From Thermoanaerobaculia bacterium (lineage in GTDB: Bacteria; Acidobacteriota; Thermoanaerobaculia; Multivoradales; Multivoraceae), in NCBI GenBank assembly GCA_963664405.1, contig OY761158.1:2720001-2784000 (forward strand): a stretch of 64,000 nt of DNA, written 5' to 3'. This document shows, piece after piece, positions 33,498-42,743 of this stretch. How positions within the stretch are numbered: the stretch's first letter is position 1; each line of letters starts with the position of its first letter. A model generated the notes under the pieces. The model searched no databases. It saw only the letters and a list, made by a program, of their open reading frames with translations, and was not told the origin of the DNA. The translations under genes were made by a program, and so were the position numbers.

Positions 33498-33693
33498 TCA
33501 GGCGGCTTCGCGCCATTCGTATCGGTGATGGAGCCCTCCGACACGAGGCATCGAGACGACCTTCGCGGTCGGCGCCGGGGGCGGTGTCACGGGCCGGCTA
33601 GACGGAGTGTCCTTGCGGAATGGCTCGCGCAGCTGCTGGACCACCCAGTCGGCCGCTCGGGTTGAAGGTGGCGTTGAAGTGAAGGATTCGCGC
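33498..33693 (-). mobile_element. Internally deleted integrase-core (rve) transposase remnant
   Basis: Minus strand gives 'RILHFNATFNP..WVVQQLR' and terminal 'VVSMPRVGGLHHRYEWREAA*'. Confidence 0.7.
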
Positions 33694-33770
33694 TCACCCC
33701 TTCGGGTTGATTGTTCGGCTGCGAATCCGTCTCGGCGGCTGCAAGGAGAGCAGAAGAAACAGCAAGTGAT

Positions 33771-33986
33771 CTAAGAGGCGACGACGACGTACTCCGCGAT
33801 CGTCGAGGATTCAGGGACGGGAAGTCCGTCCTCTATCAGGCCGTCGATGTGCATCTTGAGGGCTTCATACATGCTGGCTTCAGCGTCTTCCTGGGAGTCA
33901 CCCGTGGCGACGCAGCCTGGTACATCCGGCGAGTAGGCCGAATAGTTGGTCCCGGCCTTTTCGACGACGATCAGAAAACGATGCAT
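33771..33986 (-). CDS. hicB: HicB-like antitoxin
   Basis: 'YSAYSPDVPGCVATGDSQEDA...EALKMHI..L.EDGLPVP'. Confidence 0.93.
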   Translation of the reverse strand: MHRFLIVVEKAGTNYSAYSPDVPGCVATGDSQEDAEASMYEALKMHIDGLIEDGLPVPESSTIAEYVVVAS

Positions 33987-34668: not shown

Positions 34669-34696
34669 TTGACAGGGTAGGGGAGAGGGGTAAGGT
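34669..34696 (+). promoter_or_regulatory. Sigma70-like promoter of addiction-module antitoxin
   Basis: TTGACA-16 nt-TAAGGT, 7 nt before the ATG at 34704. Confidence 0.5.
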
Positions 34697-34703
34697 GGAG
34701 AGC

Positions 34704-34925
34704 ATGACGAAAACCGAGGTACAAAAGGAGTTGGAGCGTCTTCCTCTTGACGAACAGATCGAGCTCGCGGGCGAGGTGATGGAGCGAGCTGCCCCAGAAG
34801 AAGGCTTCACGTTGAGCGATGAGCTCAAGCAAGAGCTCGTGGCGCGACGCGACGAAGCGATCGCACATCCGGAGAGAGGCATTCCCTATGAGGAGGTGCG
34901 CGAAAGACTCTTCAAGGGTCTATGA
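34704..34925 (+). CDS. Putative addiction module antitoxin (TIGR02574-like); cognate toxin missing
   Basis: 'L.RLPLDEQIELA..VM...ELVARR...HPERGIPYEEVRERL'. The overlapping ATGA start that follows gives only MKVPFGARSRT*. Confidence 0.85.
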   Translation: MTKTEVQKELERLPLDEQIELAGEVMERAAPEEGFTLSDELKQELVARRDEAIAHPERGIPYEEVRERLFKGL

Positions 34926-35040
34926 AGGTTCCCTTTGGTGCTCGGAGTCGTACATGACGCGCGTCATCCACGAAGTTGGCGGGACCGTCGCTAGATAGAT
35001 ACGCGCGTATCCGAGTGTCTCGGTGAAGGGCGGGAAGCGT

Positions 35041-35655
35041 TCACTTGGTGGTTTCCGTCCGACATTCCCGGAGATAGTTGGTGACGGTCTGACGATTGAC
35101 ACCGAGCTCCCGAGCGATCGCGCGTTTCGACTTGCCGGATGCAGCGAGATCGCGGATCTGTTTCTGTTTGGCTTCCGGGATCCGAGGTCGGGAGATCTGT
35201 TTGCCTTGCGCACGAGCTCGGGCCATACCGGCACGCACGTTCTCTGAGATCTGCTCGCGCTCGAGCTCCGCAAAGCCAGCGATCACCGTGAAGAAGAATC
35301 TTCCCTGGGGTGTCGTGGTGTCGATGTTCTCGGAGTAGGAGATGAAGTCGACATCGAGGGCGCGAAACTCCTCGAGTGAGTTGATGAGCTCCCGAGTCGA
35401 GCGAGCGAAGCGGTTGTAGCGATAGACGAGAACAACGTCGACCTGGCGCTTGCGCACGCGGTCGAGAAGTTCCTGGTACTTCTCGCGATCCGTCGTTCCA
35501 CCACTGGCATGGTCAACAAACTCGTCGGCGACACTCCAGCCGTCGTGGTGACGTACGAGATCTCGAAGCACCCGAAGCTGTGTCTCTGGGTCTTGGTTCT
35601 TGTCGATGGTCGAGACCCTGGCGTAGATCGCGACACGTTTGGTGGATGAGGGCAT
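35041..35655 (-). CDS. Serine recombinase (resolvase/invertase) with C-terminal HTH
   Basis: 'IYARVST...Q', 'D.ASG...R', 'RFARS', 'IDTTTPQGR...FAELER.I.E.V.AG', HTH 'SKRAIARELGVNRQTV'. Confidence 0.95.
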   Translation of the reverse strand: MPSSTKRVAIYARVSTIDKNQDPETQLRVLRDLVRHHDGWSVADEFVDHASGGTTDREKYQELLDRVRKRQVDVVLVYRYNRFARSTRELINSLEEFRALDVDFISYSENIDTTTPQGRFFFTVIAGFAELEREQISENVRAGMARARAQGKQISRPRIPEAKQKQIRDLAASGKSKRAIARELGVNRQTVTNYLRECRTETTK

Positions 35656-35665
35656 AGATGGGGTG

Positions 35666-35763
35666 GCTAAAAAGGGTAGTCAGATTAGAGCCTCGAAAAC
35701 CCCTATTCCATAAGGGTCAAGAGGGGAGCTCAAGGCAGTGCTAAAAAGGACTTCCTATTTAGC
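35666..35763. promoter_or_regulatory. Putative res site (multiple recombinase-binding subsites)
   Basis: GCTAAAAAGG at 35666, ACCCCTAT..ATAAGGGT dyad at 35699-35717, and palindrome GCTAAAAAGG-ACTT-CCTATTTAGC at 35740-35763, directly upstream of the resolvase. Confidence 0.6.
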
Positions 35764-35926
35764 CACCATAGCAACGCCTCGCAAGAATGCAAGCGGGGAA
35801 GCCGGTGGCGTCTTCTGCCTTGGAAGGTGCAACTCTGGCACCTTCCGTCTGTGGACAACTCCCCGTGGTTGCTGGTTTTCGCCTCGATGGGGGAGGGAGT
35901 GTTGGCACACTTCGTGGCGGAAGGTG
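35739..35926 (+). repeat. Cassette-leader repeat, copy 1
   Basis: Palindrome 35740-35763 plus 122-bp core 35805-35926, which differs at 4 positions from 38913-39035. Confidence 0.95.
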
Positions 35927-36021
35927 CCAGGACAGGGGAGACTTGCTTTTTGTTGCGCTCTCGGAAGCGGGGGTTGCGCCACCCGCTTGGCGCGCCTTGG
36001 CGGTAGACTCTCCTCCACATC

Positions 36022-38697
36022 ATGGCGCTAGAAGCTGGCACTCGCCTCGGCCACTACGAAGTGGTCTCCTCGCTAGGTGCGGGAGGCATGGGAGAAGTGT
36101 ATCGAGCCAAGGACACGAAGCTCGGTCGCGAGGTAGCGGTCAAACTCCTGCTCGACGAGGTCTCCACAGATCCTGAGCGTCTAGCTCGCTTCGAGCGCGA
36201 GGCGCGGGTTCTGGCCTCGCTCAACCACAAGAACATCGCCAGCCTCCACGCCTTCGAGCGGGAGGGTGACACGGGCTTCCTGGTCATGGAACTGGTCGAG
36301 GGCGAGACTCTGGCCGATCGGATTGCTCACGGCCCAATCCCCGTCGAGGAGGCGATCCCGCTCTTTCTCCAAATCGCCGAGGGCCTGGAGGCAGCGCACG
36401 AGAAGGGAGTGATCCACCGGGATCTCAAACCCGCGAACATCAAGGTCACCGACGACGGGAACGTCAAGATTCTTGACTTCGGTCTGGCCAAGGCAATGGC
36501 TCCGGCAACGGGCCCGGAGAGCGACCCTTCGGAGTCGCCCACGCTGACCCAGGCGGCCACGCTCCGGGGCCAGATTCTCGGCACGGCGGCCTACATGTCG
36601 CCCGAGCAAGCCAAGGGGAAAGAGGTCGATAGAAGGGCCGACGTCTGGGCCTTCGGCGTGTGTCTCTACGAGTCGCTGACGGGATCGAGGGCGTTCCGCG
36701 GCGACGATGCCGCCGACACGCTGGCAGCGGTACTCAGAGCGGAGATCGACTGGGGCAAGCTCCCCCCGGCGACGCCGAGAGCGATCAGGAGACTGCTCCG
36801 ACGGTGTTTGACGAAGGACCCGCGGGAGCGCCTTCACGACATCGCCGACGTCCGGATCGAGATCCGAGGAGTGCTCGAGCAGCCGGACATCGACGCGCCA
36901 GCCGGTGGCGAGACGGCGCCTGCCAAGCGTCAGGTATCGGCGGTCTTTGCCGGAGCACTCGCCCTCCTAACTCTGGCGGCCGGTCTCGTCCTCGGCTTCG
37001 TCCTGCCCCGGAGCGGAGGCGATGCGGCGAGCGACGCTGCCTCCGACGACACCTGGACGGTCACGGCTCTCGACCTCGTCGAGGCAGCTCCGGGTCAGCG
37101 CTTCCGGCTCTCTCCGGACGGTCGGATGGTGGTTTTCCGTCGTCGCGAGGGAGCCAACAGCAGCCTCTACCGGCGCTCTCTCGACTCCCTGGTCGCCGAG
37201 CGCATCTCCGGCAGTGACGGTGCCCGCAGGCCGATCTTCTCGCCCGACGGCAAACAGCTTGCCTTCGTGGACGCCGGGGGCAGTCTGAAGACGCTTCGCG
37301 TGGAGGGTGGAGGCGCCAGCGCTCTGGTGGAAGGGATCCGCAGGGCCGGTGTCTGGGGGCGCGATGGCTTCCTCTACTACACGCTTGGCCAAGGCAGGAC
37401 CACGTCTCTCGAGCTATGGCGGATTCCGGCGGGTGGGGGTGTCTCCGAGCAGGTGGGACATGGCTACGGGGGAGCGCTTCTGCCGGGTGAGCGGGTCGCC
37501 CTGGCCCACTTGAGATCCGAGCGTCCGGACGGCTTCTGGAGCGATGTTCGGGCGGTGGACCTCGAGACCGGCCAGGAACGGGTTCTCCTCCCTGGGGCGC
37601 AGCCGTTCTATCTCGATCCGGGTTTTTTGGTCTTCTATCGCGAAGGCGGACTGTGGGCGGCGCCAATCGATCCCGAGACCGGCGACCTCCTCGGTCCGGC
37701 GCGTCAGGTCGAGAACGGGGTGGCTCCGTTCCCCGGCATTGGCATCGATGTCGGCCGCTTCGCGCTCGCAGATTCGGGCGACCTGCTCTACGTTCCCGGG
37801 AGTCGGAGCGTGTCCCGGCTGGTTTGGGTGAGTCGGGACGGCCGGGACATCGAGGAGGTGGCGCCGGAGCGCAAGCCTTTCGGGGCGCCGCGACACTCCC
37901 TGGACTGGCTCCGGATCTCGGTCAGCGCCCGCGACGCCAAGGGGAACTCCGAGCAGTGGATGCTCGACCTCGAGACCGGCTCCTGGACCCGCCCGACCCA
38001 GGAGGGGAATCGCAACGCTGAGGCGATGTGGGTGCCCCCCGACGGCCAGGAGATCGCCTTCTTCTCGGATCGCTTCGAGGGGCGCTGGCAGATCTACATC
38101 CAGCCCGCCGATCGCGGGGCCCCGGCGGAGCGTCTCTTACCGTCGGAGCACAACCAGGGCGTGCTCGGCTTCTCCCCGAACGGGCGCTACATGCTCTACA
38201 CGAACTTCGATTTCCCCGGACTCTGGGCCTTCGACCGGGAGAGCGGAGAGTCCGAGACCCTCCTCGAGGGGAACGTGGTCGGCGCTGCTCGCTTCCACCC
38301 CGCCGGACGTTGGATCGCCTACTCGATGGTCGTTCAGGGACAGGGGGACGTCTGGATTCGGCCCTTCCCCGGTCCCGGCGAGCCGCGCCAGCTCACCTTC
38401 GACGGCGGCCAGGAGCCCGATTTCTCCCCCGAAGGCAGCGAGATCCTCTACCGCAGCCCGACCCACATGATGACGCTCCCGATCGAGATCTCCGGCGAGC
38501 GCTTCGTCACCCGGCGTCCCGAGCCACTCTTCGTGGATGATTACCTGCGCACACCCACGAGGCGCCAGACCTACGCCATCCACCCCGACGGTCGCTTCCT
38601 CATGATCCAGGCGACAGAGGCCGAGGAGGAGCGTCTAGTCTTGGTCCAGAACTGGCGGGCCAAGGTGCTCGAGATGTTCTCCGAGGGGGGCTCGTGA
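36022..38697 (+). CDS. Ser/Thr protein kinase with TM segment and TolB/PD40 beta-propeller
   Basis: GAGGMGEVY, VAVK, HRDLKPAN, DFG, YMSPEQ; TM helix; repeated FSPDG/WSP blades. Confidence 0.95.
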   Translation: MALEAGTRLGHYEVVSSLGAGGMGEVYRAKDTKLGREVAVKLLLDEVSTDPERLARFEREARVLASLNHKNIASLHAFEREGDTGFLVMELVEGETLADRIAHGPIPVEEAIPLFLQIAEGLEAAHEKGVIHRDLKPANIKVTDDGNVKILDFGLAKAMAPATGPESDPSESPTLTQAATLRGQILGTAAYMSPEQAKGKEVDRRADVWAFGVCLYESLTGSRAFRGDDAADTLAAVLRAEIDWGKLPPATPRAIRRLLRRCLTKDPRERLHDIADVRIEIRGVLEQPDIDAPAGGETAPAKRQVSAVFAGALALLTLAAGLVLGFVLPRSGGDAASDAASDDTWTVTALDLVEAAPGQRFRLSPDGRMVVFRRREGANSSLYRRSLDSLVAERISGSDGARRPIFSPDGKQLAFVDAGGSLKTLRVEGGGASALVEGIRRAGVWGRDGFLYYTLGQGRTTSLELWRIPAGGGVSEQVGHGYGGALLPGERVALAHLRSERPDGFWSDVRAVDLETGQERVLLPGAQPFYLDPGFLVFYREGGLWAAPIDPETGDLLGPARQVENGVAPFPGIGIDVGRFALADSGDLLYVPGSRSVSRLVWVSRDGRDIEEVAPERKPFGAPRHSLDWLRISVSARDAKGNSEQWMLDLETGSWTRPTQEGNRNAEAMWVPPDGQEIAFFSDRFEGRWQIYIQPADRGAPAERLLPSEHNQGVLGFSPNGRYMLYTNFDFPGLWAFDRESGESETLLEGNVVGAARFHPAGRWIAYSMVVQGQGDVWIRPFPGPGEPRQLTFDGGQEPDFSPEGSEILYRSPTHMMTLPIEISGERFVTRRPEPLFVDDYLRTPTRRQTYAIHPDGRFLMIQATEAEEERLVLVQNWRAKVLEMFSEGGS

Positions 38698-38769
38698 GCG
38701 AGAGCCTGTCGCCCCTAGAAGCGCTCTACGATATATATAGCGAAAGCGAATAAGCACCGGTACCGCTGA

Positions 38770-38798
38770 GCTGCACCTTTTCTAGTGGAAGGTGCAGC
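38770..38798. repeat. Hairpin carrying the GGAAGGTGC motif of the leader repeats
   Basis: GCTGCACCTT-TTCTAGTGG-AAGGTGCAGC. Confidence 0.7.
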
Positions 38799-38865
38799 GG
38801 GCAAGATCGACCAGTGTCGCGAGCCCGAGCGCGACCGTCTCCTAGTCGCGCACCTAGATGGCACA

Positions 38866-39035
38866 TGCTAAAAATGATCTCCTATTTAGCACCCACATAG
38901 CGACGTCTCGCTGTGGCGTCTTCTACCTTGGAAGGTGCAACTCTGGCACCTTCCGTCTGTGGACAACTCCCCGTGGTTGCTGGTTTTCGCCTCGAATAGG
39001 GGAGGGAGTGTTGGCACGCTTCGTGGCGGAAGGTG
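38866..39035 (+). repeat. Cassette-leader repeat, copy 2
   Basis: GCTAAAAATG-ATCT-CCTATTTAGC at 38867-38890 plus 123-bp core 38913-39035. Confidence 0.95.
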
Positions 39036-39146
39036 ATACGGCCTCGGCGCAACTCTGCAGCGTCTAGCCCCTACCGAGACTCTCGAAAGTACCTCCCGGT
39101 CCAGGACTACGTTATCCTGCTTGGTTTTAGACAAAGGAGACTAGGA

Positions 39147-41489
39147 ATGTCGAGAGTTCAACGATTCAGTTCGCTCTGCCTCGTCGTCGGCGTGGCCCTC
39201 ATCGCCATCGCCTGCCAGCCGGCAACCGACTCTCCATCGGGAGAAGTCCCTGACCCGCGCATGGCCGGCTTCGAAGGAAAGATCGCCCGCTCGTACGAGG
39301 AGTCCGTCGAGGACTGGCCCGACGAGTCGACCTTCACGGGTGAAGAGCCCAACGTCCTGCTCATCCTGCTTGACGATGTGGGCTACGCTCAGATCGGAGC
39401 CTTCGGCGGCCTGACCGAGACGCCGAACATCGATGCCCTGGCGAACAACGGCCTGCGGTACAACAATTTCCATACGACTGCGCTCTGCTCGCCCTCGCGA
39501 GCCGCCATTCTGGCCGGCCGCAACCACCACTCGATCGGCCTCGGCTCTCACGCGCTGACTGCGATGGGGTTCCCCGGCTACGTCGGCAGAGTTCCGTACG
39601 AGGCACAGGAAGTGACGCGCGTCGCTCGGGAGCAGGGTTGGACGACCTATGCTATTGGCAAGTGGGACCACACTCCCACTTTCCAGGTCCATCAGGTCGG
39701 TCCCTTCGATTACTGGCCGACGAGCGACGGCTTCGATCACACCTACAACTTCATGGCGGCCGACGCCAACAACTTCACGCCTGTGATGTACGCGGGCCAC
39801 GAGCCGGTGGAGCCGGCGCGCGGCAATCCCGACTACCACCTCTCGACCGACATGGCTGACAAGGCGATTCACTATCTGACCGGCCACGTCTCCATCGCGC
39901 CCAAGAAGCCGTTCTTCATGTTCTGGGCTCCCGGCGCCATGCACGCCCCCCACCACGCGCCGCAGGAATACATCGACAAGTACAGGGGCCGGTTCGACAT
40001 GGGGTGGGATGCGGCTCGCCAAATGGTTTTCGAGAAGCAACAGGAGATGGGCCTATTGCCCGAGGGCACGGTTCTGACCGAGCGGCTCGACGCCATTCCG
40101 TCCTGGGACAGCCTGGACGACCGGGAGAAGCAGATGTACGCCCGCCAGATGGAGGCCTTCGCCGGTCAGCTCGATCACGTCGATCACGAGATCGGCCGCA
40201 TCATCGACACGCTTGAGCGAATCGGCAAGCTCGACAACACGCTCATCTTCGTCACGTCGGACAACGGTGCGAGCGGCGAGGGCGGTCTTTCGGGCAGCCA
40301 TAACGAGGTGCTGCTCCTCAACGGGATCCCGAGAACCGACTTCGAAGAGAACTGGGAGCGCTACGAGACGTGGGGGTCCGAAGAGACCAACAACCACTAC
40401 CACGTTGGCTGGACCTGGGCCGGCAACACGCCGTTCAAGTACTTCAAGCAGCACGTGCACCGCGGTGGCACACAGGACCCGCTAATCGTGCACTGGCCGG
40501 CCGGGATCGAAGCAAAAGGCGAGATCCGCGGTCAGTACGCCCACATCATCGACCTCGCGCCGACCATCGAAGAGGCGCTGGATCTCGACTTTCTGGAGGA
40601 GATCGACGGCATCGAGCAGATGCCCTACGACGGCACCAGCTTCGCTTACTCCTTCAACGATGCTGACGCGCCCGATCAACACACGCGGCAATACTACGAA
40701 CAGTTAGGCAACCGAGCGATGTATCTCGACGGGTGGAAGGCCGTCACCATCCACGCCGACCGGATGCCGTGGGATCTCGCCGCAAGGCGTCCGTTCGAAG
40801 ACGACGTTTGGGAGCTCTACCACCTGGACGAGGACTTCTCGGAGGCCAACGACCTCGCCGACGAGCAACCCGACAAGCTCGAGGAGCTGAAGGCGGCGTG
40901 GGACGAGGAAGCCATCGAGTACAACGTCTACCCGCTCCACGACGACGTCCTAGCCCGGCTTACCAACGTGGTGAAGCAGTTCGCCCCGATTCGGAACGAG
41001 TATGTGTACTACGCGCCCGGCGCCATCCGGATCTCGGAGCCCTACTCGCCCCCGGTGAAGAATCGCAACCACAGCATTACCGCGTATGCTGATCTTTCGG
41101 AAGGCGCAAGCGGCGTGCTCGTCGCGGCCGGCGGCATCTACGGCGGGTACGCGCTCTTCGTCAAAGACGACCTGCTTTTCTACGAGTACAACGCCTACAA
41201 CGAAGATCGCTACCAGATCCGCTCGCACTCGAGGCTCCCGGCAGGGGAGGTCGAGCTACGAGCCGTCTATGAAGCCGGTGAGAACCTTACTGCGACGGTA
41301 ACGCTCTTCGTCAACGACGAGCAGGTCGGGCAAGGCGAGATCGGCCGCTCCATCCCGGGGACCTTCTCGTTGTCCGAAACGTTCGACGTGGGAGAAGACA
41401 CCGGTACGCCCGTTTCGAGGGACTACGACCGCGAGGAAAGCGTCTTTAGCGGAAACCTCGACAGGGTCGTAATCCGGCTGGAGGGCTGA
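39147..41489 (+). CDS. Arylsulfatase (FGly-dependent), predicted lipoprotein
   Basis: RBS AGGAG; lipobox LIAIAC; PNVLLILLDD, LCSPSRAAILAG, GKWDH, SDNG; C-terminal LamG-like domain. Confidence 0.93.
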   Translation: MSRVQRFSSLCLVVGVALIAIACQPATDSPSGEVPDPRMAGFEGKIARSYEESVEDWPDESTFTGEEPNVLLILLDDVGYAQIGAFGGLTETPNIDALANNGLRYNNFHTTALCSPSRAAILAGRNHHSIGLGSHALTAMGFPGYVGRVPYEAQEVTRVAREQGWTTYAIGKWDHTPTFQVHQVGPFDYWPTSDGFDHTYNFMAADANNFTPVMYAGHEPVEPARGNPDYHLSTDMADKAIHYLTGHVSIAPKKPFFMFWAPGAMHAPHHAPQEYIDKYRGRFDMGWDAARQMVFEKQQEMGLLPEGTVLTERLDAIPSWDSLDDREKQMYARQMEAFAGQLDHVDHEIGRIIDTLERIGKLDNTLIFVTSDNGASGEGGLSGSHNEVLLLNGIPRTDFEENWERYETWGSEETNNHYHVGWTWAGNTPFKYFKQHVHRGGTQDPLIVHWPAGIEAKGEIRGQYAHIIDLAPTIEEALDLDFLEEIDGIEQMPYDGTSFAYSFNDADAPDQHTRQYYEQLGNRAMYLDGWKAVTIHADRMPWDLAARRPFEDDVWELYHLDEDFSEANDLADEQPDKLEELKAAWDEEAIEYNVYPLHDDVLARLTNVVKQFAPIRNEYVYYAPGAIRISEPYSPPVKNRNHSITAYADLSEGASGVLVAAGGIYGGYALFVKDDLLFYEYNAYNEDRYQIRSHSRLPAGEVELRAVYEAGENLTATVTLFVNDEQVGQGEIGRSIPGTFSLSETFDVGEDTGTPVSRDYDREESVFSGNLDRVVIRLEG

Positions 41490-41577
41490 ATCGAGATCTG
41501 GTGGCAAGAGGTGGACGGTCCTCGGCCTCTGCATGTGTCGCCCTTCATAGCGAAAGTCGACACGGATAGCCCAAATC

Positions 41578-41955
41578 GGACCAGCGGGGGCATTTGAACG
41601 AAAACTTACGGTTCTGCGTTCTTCGCCTATCGTGTTCGTTATCTGGCTTCAAGAAGAGCGTGTTGGGCTAGTGTAGTCCGACCTTGAAACCGCACCCGAG
41701 CCCTCTGGCTCCTGAGTATCAGGCGCTACGTGTCCCGGTCACCGCTAGGACTGCTCTGAACACTCCAGGGGGTGATCGGCATGAGTGAAAACCCTCCTCC
41801 TCCGGAACGCTTTCTCTCGGGCCGCCAGCGACGCCACTCGGTTGCACTACCCGAGCGCCTTTCCGATGACGAGCTTGTCCGAGATTGGTCGTTGACTGGG
41901 AACGAACTCGAGCGACCGGAACCGTAAGTTTTCGTTCAAATGCCCCCGCTGGTCC
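41578..41955 (+). mobile_element. Tn3-derived miniature inverted-repeat element (378 bp) carrying the 5' end of tnpA
   Basis: 37-bp perfect IR GGACCAGCGGGGGCATTTGAACGAAAACTTACGGTTC; GAACGAAAACT.ACG sits at the same offset as in the Tn3 IR. Internal 'LPERLSDDELVRDWSLT' resembles the Tn3 transposase N-terminus. No matching 5-bp TSD. Confidence 0.88.
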
Positions 41956-42019
41956 TAATAGTGGTCGTGGTCTTTCCAACGCCTCCTTTTTGATTGACGA
42001 TGGCGATGGTGGTGGTCAT
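41956..42019 (-). pseudogene. parA: ParA family ATPase, N-terminal stub cut by the Tn3 MITE
   Basis: MTTTIAIVNQKGGVGKTTTTI (deviant Walker A) ends exactly at the IR. Confidence 0.85.
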
Positions 42020-42256
42020 GGGGGTTTTTTGTAGGTGCGCGTTGTGCGACGAGAGACTCTGAAGACGACGACCGTCGTCTGATCGTAGTCGACGCCGAAG
42101 AGGATGCGCCACGACCCGACTCGCCGGCGAAATTCGAGGCGCGGTGATCGCCCCTTGAGTCGAACGACGTCTCCACTGAAAGGATCGGTGGCCTCTGGTA
42201 GGGAGGCGTCGGATGTCTCTGACGGCGGCCTTATTTGTGACTACCTGCCATCTCAT
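42016..42256 (-). pseudogene. RelE/ParE family toxin with internal deletion/frameshift
   Basis: MRWQVVTNKAAVRDIRRLP / TDPFSGDVVRLKG...FRRRVGSWRILF...VFRVSRRTTRTY in two frames. Confidence 0.85.
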
Positions 42257-42500
42257 TGTGAAGCTCTTCGAGTGTCACGTACTCGCCGGTCTTGTAAGCC
42301 TTCCAGCCATCCTTGAGCATGCGCGCCTCTTGGCTGGTGGGTTCGACCACGGGAATGCGACGGGAGCGCTCTATGTAGGAGCGCAGCGCTTCTCGGACGA
42401 GCTCCGAGCGTGTACGGTGCTCGGCCTTCCGCACAGCCTCGGCCTGCTCATAAAGGTCAGGGGGTAGCGAGATGGAGAGTTTCTTGTGAGCCATTTCCAT
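42231..42500 (-). CDS. Ribbon-helix-helix (CopG-like) antitoxin
   Basis: 'KLSISLPPDL...TRSELVREALRSY' and 'GEYVTLEEL' tail; overlaps the toxin start. Confidence 0.88.
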   Translation of the reverse strand: MEMAHKKLSISLPPDLYEQAEAVRKAEHRTRSELVREALRSYIERSRRIPVVEPTSQEARMLKDGWKAYKTGEYVTLEELHNEMAGSHK

Positions 42501-42520
42501 AGAGCCTATTGTGTTAGCTG

Positions 42521-42558
42521 GTATGACTCCATACTACCGGGTTGTGGGGGCTCGTCAA
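42521..42558 (-). promoter_or_regulatory. Sigma70 promoter with overlapping palindromic operator
   Basis: Minus strand TTGACG-16 nt-TAGTAT; dyad GTATG-GAGT-CATAC overlaps the -10. Confidence 0.6.
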
Positions 42559-42743
42559 GTGGGGATAATCGGTCGCACGCCTACCATTCAGCTGTGGCAC
42601 TTACGAGCCCCCTCCCAAGCGTAGCCGCTTCGTAAATCGAGGCGGTAAGGCCTCGACGAGGACCAATCTAATGATTGGCCAAATAATTCAAGGCGAGCTC
42701 CACGAGCCTTGCACCGTAGTAGAGAATGGCCAGCCAAGCTGCA

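Follow-up and report, generated by a model that had tools for sequence, protein, structure and literature searches.

The window analysed here, a 64,000-nucleotide stretch of DNA from a Thermoanaerobaculia bacterium (positions 2720001-2784000 of a single 6.78-Mb contig), carries an intact gene for a serine resolvase and, upstream of that gene, a region that resembles a resolution site (res). The distal palindrome of the res-like region, a 26-bp dyad, recurs about 3.1 kb further on, and each copy precedes a repeat, which we call the core, and one gene. A first-pass annotation of this DNA had read the arrangement as gene cassettes stacked by the resolvase, and the features on which it built are all present where it placed them. 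Coordinates are those of the window unless marked as genome coordinates. The dyads at 35739 and 38866 are labelled A and B, the other genome loci L2, L3, and L4, and a related metagenome contig L027. From left to right, with the strand where one is assigned, the region consists of the following features, some of which have the form of repetitive extragenic palindromic (REP) sequences:

34695-34925, plus strand: antitoxin-like gene, 76 aa, beside the resolvase 3′ end (PF09720 Unstab_antitox, E 7.5e-7)
34926-34994: short stop-to-stop frame, RFPLVLGVVHDARHPRSWRDRR, following the antitoxin-like gene; a possible toxin remnant
35041-35655, minus strand: intact resolvase gene, 204 aa (PF00239, E 2.3e-43; HTH_7/HTH_38)
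35656-35738: accessory part of the res-like region, with candidate sites III and II (four-way alignment with L4, L2, and L027; repeat search)
35739-35764: 26-bp dyad A, TGCTAAAAAGG-ACTT-CCTATTTAGCC, candidate crossover site I, class 1
35765-35804: right flank of site I, called R (about 35 nt common to all six copies)
35805-35926, plus strand: core copy A, a composite of REP-like hairpin units
35927-36021, plus strand: mosaic leader of the window kinase copy
36022-38697, plus strand: gene for a Ser/Thr protein kinase with PD40 beta-propeller repeats, 891 aa (Pfam)
38700-38762, plus strand: REP-like unit 3 nt past the kinase stop (nhmmer E 0.0019; homologous 3′ flanks of paralogues)
38768-38865, plus strand: hairpin module (H1, second hairpin, spacer), also at genome 6018748-6018848
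38866-38891: orphan site-I-like dyad B, TGCTAAAAATG-ATCT-CCTATTTAGCA, class 2, without accessory sites or a resolvase stub
38892-38912: what remains of R, with 51 nt fewer than in L2 and L3
38913-39035, plus strand: core copy B, 97% identical to copy A
39147-41489, plus strand: sulfatase gene, 780 aa from the ATG at 39147 (PF00884, E 2.7e-56)
41532-41577, plus strand: REP-like unit, GTGTCGCCCTTCATAGCGAAAGTCGACAC GGATAGCC, 43 nt past the sulfatase stop and cut by the next element (nhmmer E 2.8e-8; pattern match at genome 2761536)
41578-41955: Tn3-derived miniature element, 378 bp, with 37-bp perfect inverted ends (repeat search)

The GC content is 0.57-0.59 around the resolvase and around the 378-bp element, and 0.65-0.69 in the kinase gene. 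The frame that follows the antitoxin-like gene presumably resembles the C-termini of ParE/RelE proteins.

The resolvase has the build of a small serine recombinase, with an N-terminal catalytic domain (PF00239 over residues 8-152) that includes the serine nucleophile in the motif YARVST, and a C-terminal helix-turn-helix (HTH_7/HTH_38 at residues 161-196). A second intact copy lies at genome 6509472-6510080 (L2). The two proteins are 92.6% identical, and the genes have diverged by 0.25 at synonymous sites (dS) with a ratio of nonsynonymous to synonymous divergence (dN/dS) of 0.2, which argues that both copies are maintained. The res region of L2 is interrupted by an insertion encoding an IstB_IS21 protein (E 1.3e-77). 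At L4 (genome 3336647-3336822), which adjoins a PIN-domain gene, only res and the first 19 resolvase codons are present. The metagenome contig L027 (2555 bp) carries a resolvase 86% identical to that of the window, then res, and then a kinase paralogue, without the core; the layout reported in the first-pass annotation, with the resolvase transcribed away from a multi-subsite res-like region and the palindrome distal to the gene, is therefore kept at this distance.

When the res regions of the window, L2, L4, and L027 were aligned, three conserved blocks were apparent, the limits of the subsites being set by eye. The block beside the gene, GGGGTGGCTAAAAAGGGTA, and the middle block, AAAACCC..GGGT.GAGAG, are candidates for sites III and II, and the dyad forms the distal block. 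Dyad A is identical in L2 and differs by one base in L4 and in L027. Dyad A contains GCTAAAAAGG at 35740 and CCTATTTAGC at 35754, and a further GCTAAAAAGG lies within res at 35666. From res to 37 nt past the dyad (35676-35802), the window and L2 are 95% identical, well above the expectation at a dS of 0.25. This identity and the three conserved blocks fit a working three-part res upstream of the resolvase with site I distal to the gene, the order given for Tn3-type modules in the sections of Lima-Mendez et al. 2020 that deal with them (PMC7157771).

The module shares several traits with the TnpR-res modules of Tn3-family transposons and plasmids, including the order of the protein domains, an upstream res-like region (here about 110 nt, with three conserved blocks and a distal dyad), and a toxin-antitoxin remnant nearby. 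The changes of flanking sequence at the dyad, described below, resemble the exchange of modules between transposons at res site I that the same sections of PMC7157771 document. The window module differs from TnpR-res modules in that no transposase or matching inverted ends bracket it, in that the antitoxin-like gene lies at the resolvase 3′ end and not beside site I, in a dyad centre that is not an A/T dinucleotide, and in the existence of orphan copies of site I without sites II and III. It is not part of a Tn3-family transposon, since the sole Tn3-type ends in the window bracket the 378-bp miniature element; PF01526 matches three times in the genome, each time outside the window, with two adjoining matches at 906626-907791 and a third at 1282786-1283154. 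The closest plasmid homologues of the resolvase are 48-54% identical to it, the best (54%) being encoded directly after a Tn3 family transposase gene. A search of genome contigs with the resolvase protein identified 6 loci at 40-48% identity, too distant for a comparison of sites.

The pattern GCTAA-N14-TTAGC occurs five times in the 6.78-Mb genome, always at related sites, and not once at spacings of 10-13 and 15-18, which excludes chance as the origin of the palindrome repeat. The reported recurrence after 3127 bp is confirmed by a second copy of CCTATTTAGC at 38881, with a start-to-start spacing of 3127 nt. The dyads fall into two classes: class 1, with the centre ACTT and a full res on the left, comprises A, L2, and L4, plus L027; class 2, with the centre ATCT, comprises B and L3 (genome 6018848), which have the hairpin module on the left and no accessory sites. 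The first-pass annotation had already recorded the different centres of A and B, correctly. In serine recombinases, mismatched central dinucleotides, here CT in A and TC in B, give mismatched overhangs and block productive exchange. Of the 26 positions of A, 4 are changed in one orphan dyad and 5 in the other, approximately what is expected at the dS of 0.25 seen between the two resolvase copies.

To the right of the dyad, about 35 nt are common to all copies, and A, B, L2, and L3 share a longer R that ends in a REP-like tail, ...CCTTGGAAGGTGC; compared with L2 and L3, R has deletions of 30 nt in A and 51 nt in B. To the left, A and B have no alignment upstream of the palindrome, and their homology starts at its left edge, as had been claimed. 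The left flank thus switches at the dyad, from res and resolvase sequence in A, L2, and L4 to the hairpin module in B and L3, a pattern in keeping with an earlier exchange at site I or beside it. A profile search of the genome with the dyad and R identified no further copy at E<0.01, and no third palindrome was found after the sulfatase gene by pattern and profile searches of the genome. A candidate sixth dyad fragment at genome 5002465-5002488 is a marginal half-dyad (profile E = 4) and was left as unproven. The match there, GATCTCCTATTTAGCC, covers 16 nt of the centre and right half of the class-2 dyad, with another H1 hairpin module about 60 nt away. Since it overlaps what is likely the ribosome-binding site of a divergent lipoprotein gene, it may be either a relic or a product of chance.

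Core copies A (122 nt) and B (123 nt) differ by three substitutions and one indel, in agreement with the four differences first counted, and chance is excluded for the pair (BLAST E 4e-52 within the genome). Core A contains two hairpins, GGAAGGTGC-N6-GGCACCTTCC and GGCACACTTC-N6-GAAGGTGCC, whose stems and loops share words with other hairpin units of the genome. A profile search of the genome yielded four full copies of the core, namely A, B, and two distant copies at genome 5455902-5456032 and 6516471-6516598 that have no dyad. Each has the next gene 70-275 nt downstream and in the same orientation, and the four genes (encoding the kinase, the sulfatase, an alpha/beta-hydrolase, and a PLD-like protein) are unrelated. 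Between A and B, identity is 97% over 122 nt and 80-83% over the adjoining dyad segment, with weak likeness after the core. In copies at 4.41 and 5.455 Mb the homology continues for about 48 nt past 35926, where the near-identity of A and B stops, and the first 48 nt or so of the window kinase leader continue the repeat in the same way. Because the tract of high identity lies within more diverged homology and the two direct repeats are 3.1 kb apart, the 122-bp identity appears to be a recent gene-conversion tract inside older homology of about 80% or less.

Both genes are also followed by short motifs that the first-pass annotation took for a common cassette end, TGTCGCCC at 38707 and 41536 and ATAGCGAAAG at 38737 and 41547. 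The motifs are there, but they belong to a REP-like unit of the form TGTCGC - loop with TGGCGG - GCGACA - ATAGCC, of which the genome contains 66 copies (nhmmer, E<0.01), clustered in arrays of kinase paralogues and on the gene strand within each array. TGTCGCCC is the 5′ stem of this unit and by itself occurs at chance frequency (195 + 220 copies vs 223 expected per strand). The copies of ATAGCGAAAG occupy non-homologous positions, the tail of the unit after the kinase gene and the hairpin loop after the sulfatase gene, and their exact match is therefore incidental. Counting open reading frames (ORFs) of at least 80 aa that end no more than 250 nt upstream, 58 of the 66 units follow an ORF, which is kinase-like for 25 and of another kind for 33; the remaining 8 follow none. 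The gap from the end of a kinase-like ORF to the unit is mostly -7 to +23 nt, and the two units of the window lie 3 nt past the kinase stop and 43 nt past the sulfatase stop.

In form and position these units correspond to REP sequences and bacterial interspersed mosaic elements (BIMEs), being short, imperfect, hairpin-forming palindromes that occur in tens of extragenic copies, mostly just after stop codons; REPs are placed mostly downstream of coding regions in the relevant part of Di Nocera et al. 2013 (PMC3733652). Like REP/BIME sequences, they also combine into larger mosaics, of which the core is an example. They differ in their modest copy number, in their strict co-orientation with the genes of an array, and in having no GTAG or CGTC tag that could be seen by eye. 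Y1_Tnp matches number 13 in the genome, 12 of which exceed the cut-off. Another REP-like family, at genome 6.04 Mb, shows no sequence relation to the core or to the hairpin units.

By Pfam, the genes that follow the two palindrome copies encode a kinase and a sulfatase, in agreement with the unrelated kinase and arylsulfatase genes of the first-pass annotation. The kinase gene has four other full-length paralogues at 91-92% nucleotide identity, with homology that begins at the ATG and extends 14-58 nt past the stop (to 38711-38755), the usual leader of the paralogues being replaced in the window copy. The sulfatase gene has no close paralogue in the genome and gave weak matches only.

The anatomy, copy numbers, identities, and gene contents observed here make it probable that the locus is a decayed mobile-DNA junction, made up of an ordinary resolvase-res module, a relic copy of site I, and REP-like repeats, and that it is not a machine for capturing cassettes. 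The intact resolvase would act at its own three-part res with dyad A as site I, most likely in the res x res resolution of cointegrates or multimers and perhaps in its own repression. Dyad B would be an orphan, decaying site I that retains part of its right flank within a REP-like hairpin module of about 215 nt, also present at 6.018 Mb, and it probably derives from an old exchange or an illegitimate event at or beside site I. The core would be a separate composite of REP-like hairpin units that came to lie upstream of four unrelated genes, with recent gene conversion accounting for the near-identity of A and B. The motifs after the stop codons would be parts of the 66-copy unit, found mainly in kinase-paralogue arrays, and the kinase gene itself a recent paralogue copy.

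Several points weigh against this explanation. Pfam and BLAST searches of the genome identified no Tn3-type transposase or matching inverted ends that bracket the resolvase. The left-flank homology of B and L3 breaks at the edge of the dyad, and a site-specific event explains such a breakpoint more naturally than random decay. Both orphans keep the GCTAA...TTAGC ends and carry the same changed centre, for which function, and not common descent, could be the reason. From position and conservation we infer that the dyad is bound and cut by the resolvase and that the candidate sites II and III are such sites, and from the identity profile of only two sequences we infer gene conversion. For units in which neither tag was seen by eye, the REP-like label rests on form, copy number, and position, and how they spread is surmised. 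If the explanation is right, the locus is a caution that, in a repeat-rich genome, the look of a cassette array can arise from relics of resolution sites together with REP-like units that follow stop codons. Also of interest are a resolution site with orphan copies of its crossover dyad surviving within hairpin repeats, a mosaic repeat of about 120-170 nt before four unrelated genes, and kinase-paralogue arrays in which unrelated genes carry the same 3′ unit.

For the core, we also considered that it might be a selected cis-regulatory leader, either a promoter/operator or an RNA of the 5′ untranslated region, that places the four unrelated genes under one control and owes the identity of A and B to its function. 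We think this unlikely, although the placement of all four copies, upstream of and co-oriented with the next gene, would agree with it, as would the sequence conservation of the two hairpins across copies that are otherwise 73-79% identical and the predicted RNA fold of the core (z -2.9; 0 of 200 shuffles fold as well). Double changes occur in only 5 of 32 predicted pairs in the alignment of the four sequences, and words in the hairpin stems and loops recur in the 66-copy 3′ unit. The core has no Rfam match; no family reached the gathering score anywhere in the window, and a permissive Rfam search of 35600-39200 returned two chance-level matches only, both inside the kinase gene. Between 34600 and 42100, no sigma-70-like promoter was found (0 vs 1.1 expected from shuffles), and a terminator scan gave 5 terminator-like sites vs 4.7 in shuffles. 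Promoter words of the sigma-54 and extracytoplasmic-function types with proper spacing were not seen in the hairpins by eye. Moreover, the distant core copies differ by 21-27%, so that constraint cannot explain the 97% identity of A and B.

Two further ideas about the repeats were rejected. A diversity-generating retroelement does not fit, as the repeats are non-coding, their frames differ between copies, and no reverse transcriptase is encoded among the Pfam-scanned neighbouring genes. A link to a tyrosine recombinase was considered at genome 5456062-5456601, where a gene for a 179-aa Phage_integrase-family protein ends directly upstream of one core copy (a 35-codon fragment lies at 783022-783126), and was dropped because relatives of this gene elsewhere are not next to repeats.

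The orphan-dyad module, in the order H1, hairpin 2, spacer, dyad, R, and REP tail, could be a miniature mobile element with a captured site I, and would then resemble Tn3-derived miniature elements that carry res; we regard this as doubtful. In the window, H1 lies at 38770-38798 (GCTGCACCTT-N9-AAGGTGCAGC; GCACCTT-N9-AAGGTGC) and the second hairpin at 38814-38835, followed by the spacer, and the predicted RNA fold of the hairpin module has a z of -2.1. The B module is 74.6% identical over 142 nt to genome 6018756-6018891. Consistent with mobility, the two copies occur in different contexts and in opposite orientation to the neighbouring genes, the word at the left end, GCACCTT, recurs inverted at the right end as AAGGTGC, and res-carrying miniature elements such as IS101 and TIME244 are described in the part of PMC13367494 that concerns them. 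At L3 the module lies between two opposite-strand genes, inverted relative to its neighbours when compared with B, and at L2 the gene adjoining R (DUF3604) converges on R; the module thus has no fixed relation to gene direction. There are, however, two copies only, 75% identical, with no target duplication visible by eye, and no element combining module-matching ends with a transposase was found. A search for a miniature transposon behind the hairpin word gave 17 left/right word pairs within 4 kb, among which only genome 6324605-6326405 is a real element; it shares 12 nt with H1, and the idea was abandoned.

The model proposed in the first-pass annotation, in which the resolvase moves single genes, as circular units, in and out at site I as a serine-recombinase analogue of an integron, takes dyad, R, and core as the 5′ end of a cassette and the hairpin unit as its 3′ end, and we consider it very improbable. 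It has real features on its side. Two single genes in the same orientation each have dyad, R, and core before them and a hairpin unit of one kind after them; the dyad is the exact point at which the left flank changes; the second resolvase copy adjoins another array, a run of six genes that all carry the 3′ unit; the resolvase of L027 again faces a kinase gene; and both resolvase copies are under purifying selection. The flank change and the resolvase-res layout stand as described, but the stacking of units with common ends does not. The supposed 3′ ends are copies of the 66-copy unit, the core also precedes two unrelated genes without a palindrome, and core and 3′ unit occur at many other genes without dyads. 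The genome has five dyads only, none after the sulfatase gene; the centres of A and B should be incompatible; and the orphans, which lack accessory sites, show a divergence close to that of synonymous sites in the two resolvase copies. At 6.018 Mb the module is inverted relative to the neighbouring genes, and at L2 a gene converges on R.

The cassette model predicts further dyads with compatible centres, genes that vary between relatives, and excision products. A DNA search with res and core, of the kind that the first-pass annotation had proposed, gave no match in 60 relatives, and the dyad pattern was present in none of 400 other genomes from the phylum; these negatives are weak because the lineage has no close sequenced relative. 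In metagenome contigs the dyad pattern gave 25 loci, one of them related (L027). At three others (L026, L030, and L046), resolvases 38-40% identical to that of the window have the pattern after the gene 3′ end, and the remaining loci were discarded as low-GC chance matches. Where relatives have both flanking genes (3 of 20 genomes searched), these lie on different contigs. No variation of the genes between the repeats was found in contigs of four runs or in the other genomes searched, for which the data are weak. The same contigs (four runs from two studies) contain no excision junction indicative of a circle of about 3.1 kb or an empty site, bearing in mind that contigs drop rare variants and that rare circles would be undetectable in them. 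One joint skipping 3106 nt (35804->38911) was examined and rejected as an excision product: 27-39 extra letters match R of the copies at 6.506 and 6.018 Mb and the shorter side is 28 nt, which identifies it as cross-mapping of paralogous copies.

Integrons do share with the window co-oriented single genes, each with a following imperfect palindromic unit, near a gene for a site-specific recombinase. In integrons, however, this recombinase is an IntI-type tyrosine recombinase next to attI, whereas the adjacent enzyme here is a serine recombinase. Near arrays, the tyrosine recombinases examined were the 179-aa Phage_integrase protein and the product of a multi-copy 286-aa gene. The array beside the resolvase has two genes only, the repeats occur genome-wide and far from recombinase genes, and no attC-like core sites were seen by eye. 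An active serine-recombinase cassette system, if true, would matter much more than a decayed junction, and the evidence does not favour it. Least probable of all, in our judgement, is a variant in which the resolvase acts in trans on lone site-I dyads in REP-like modules and moves single genes in and out of arrays, with the class-2 dyads (38866 and 6.018 Mb) as mutual partners and both resolvases as the engine.

Genes of the kinase-PD40 family form co-oriented tandem arrays across the genome, with unrelated genes between the kinases; BLAST with the window copy identified more than 40 places, examples being genome 17-41 kb, 751-783 kb, 3.95 Mb, 4.98-5.00 Mb, and 5.45-5.47 Mb. At genome 6510236-6520384, six consecutive minus-strand genes, for an amidohydrolase, kinases, a PLD-like protein, and an unknown protein of 259 aa, each have a REP-like unit at or just after the stop, with about 150 nt separating the start of this cassette-like array from the 3′ end of the second resolvase copy. 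At genome 34950-37055 and four other places, the 286-aa tyrosine recombinase gene is followed by a gene for a 408-aa protein, beside kinase arrays; this multi-copy gene pair looks like an insertion sequence.

To the left of the antitoxin-like gene, 37 nt (33737-33773) are identical to a subterminal part of the 1.8-kb element at genome 6324605-6326405, which has inverted ends of about 44 nt; the match points to insertion-sequence debris. Two adjoining stretches at 33498-33691 are 82-87% identical to genome 2608271-2608730 and 4459673-4459745, and another repeat family thus borders the region on this side.

On the right, the region is closed by the 378-bp element, which cuts both the 3′ unit of the sulfatase gene and a parA-like gene. 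Like other Tn3-derived miniature elements it has inverted ends, and these are also found around a decayed Tn3-type transposase gene: a 2.1-kb decayed parent at genome 906519-908667 has a split transposase gene (PF01526) between the same ends. Further copies lie at genome 868759-869164 and 894119-894524. The element has a weak DUF4158 match below the cut-off (E 0.038). It differs from res-carrying miniature elements in having no res-like sequence, and is a neighbour of the repeat system and not a part of it. The window copy is not flanked by a direct target repeat, a hint of an accompanying rearrangement. The parA-like gene (41956-42564, minus strand, start at 42019, Walker A motif KGGVGKTT) keeps about 21 codons up to the point where the miniature element cuts it, and the stretch 41965-42564 is 88.5% identical to genome 905534-906165, beside the decayed Tn3-like element.

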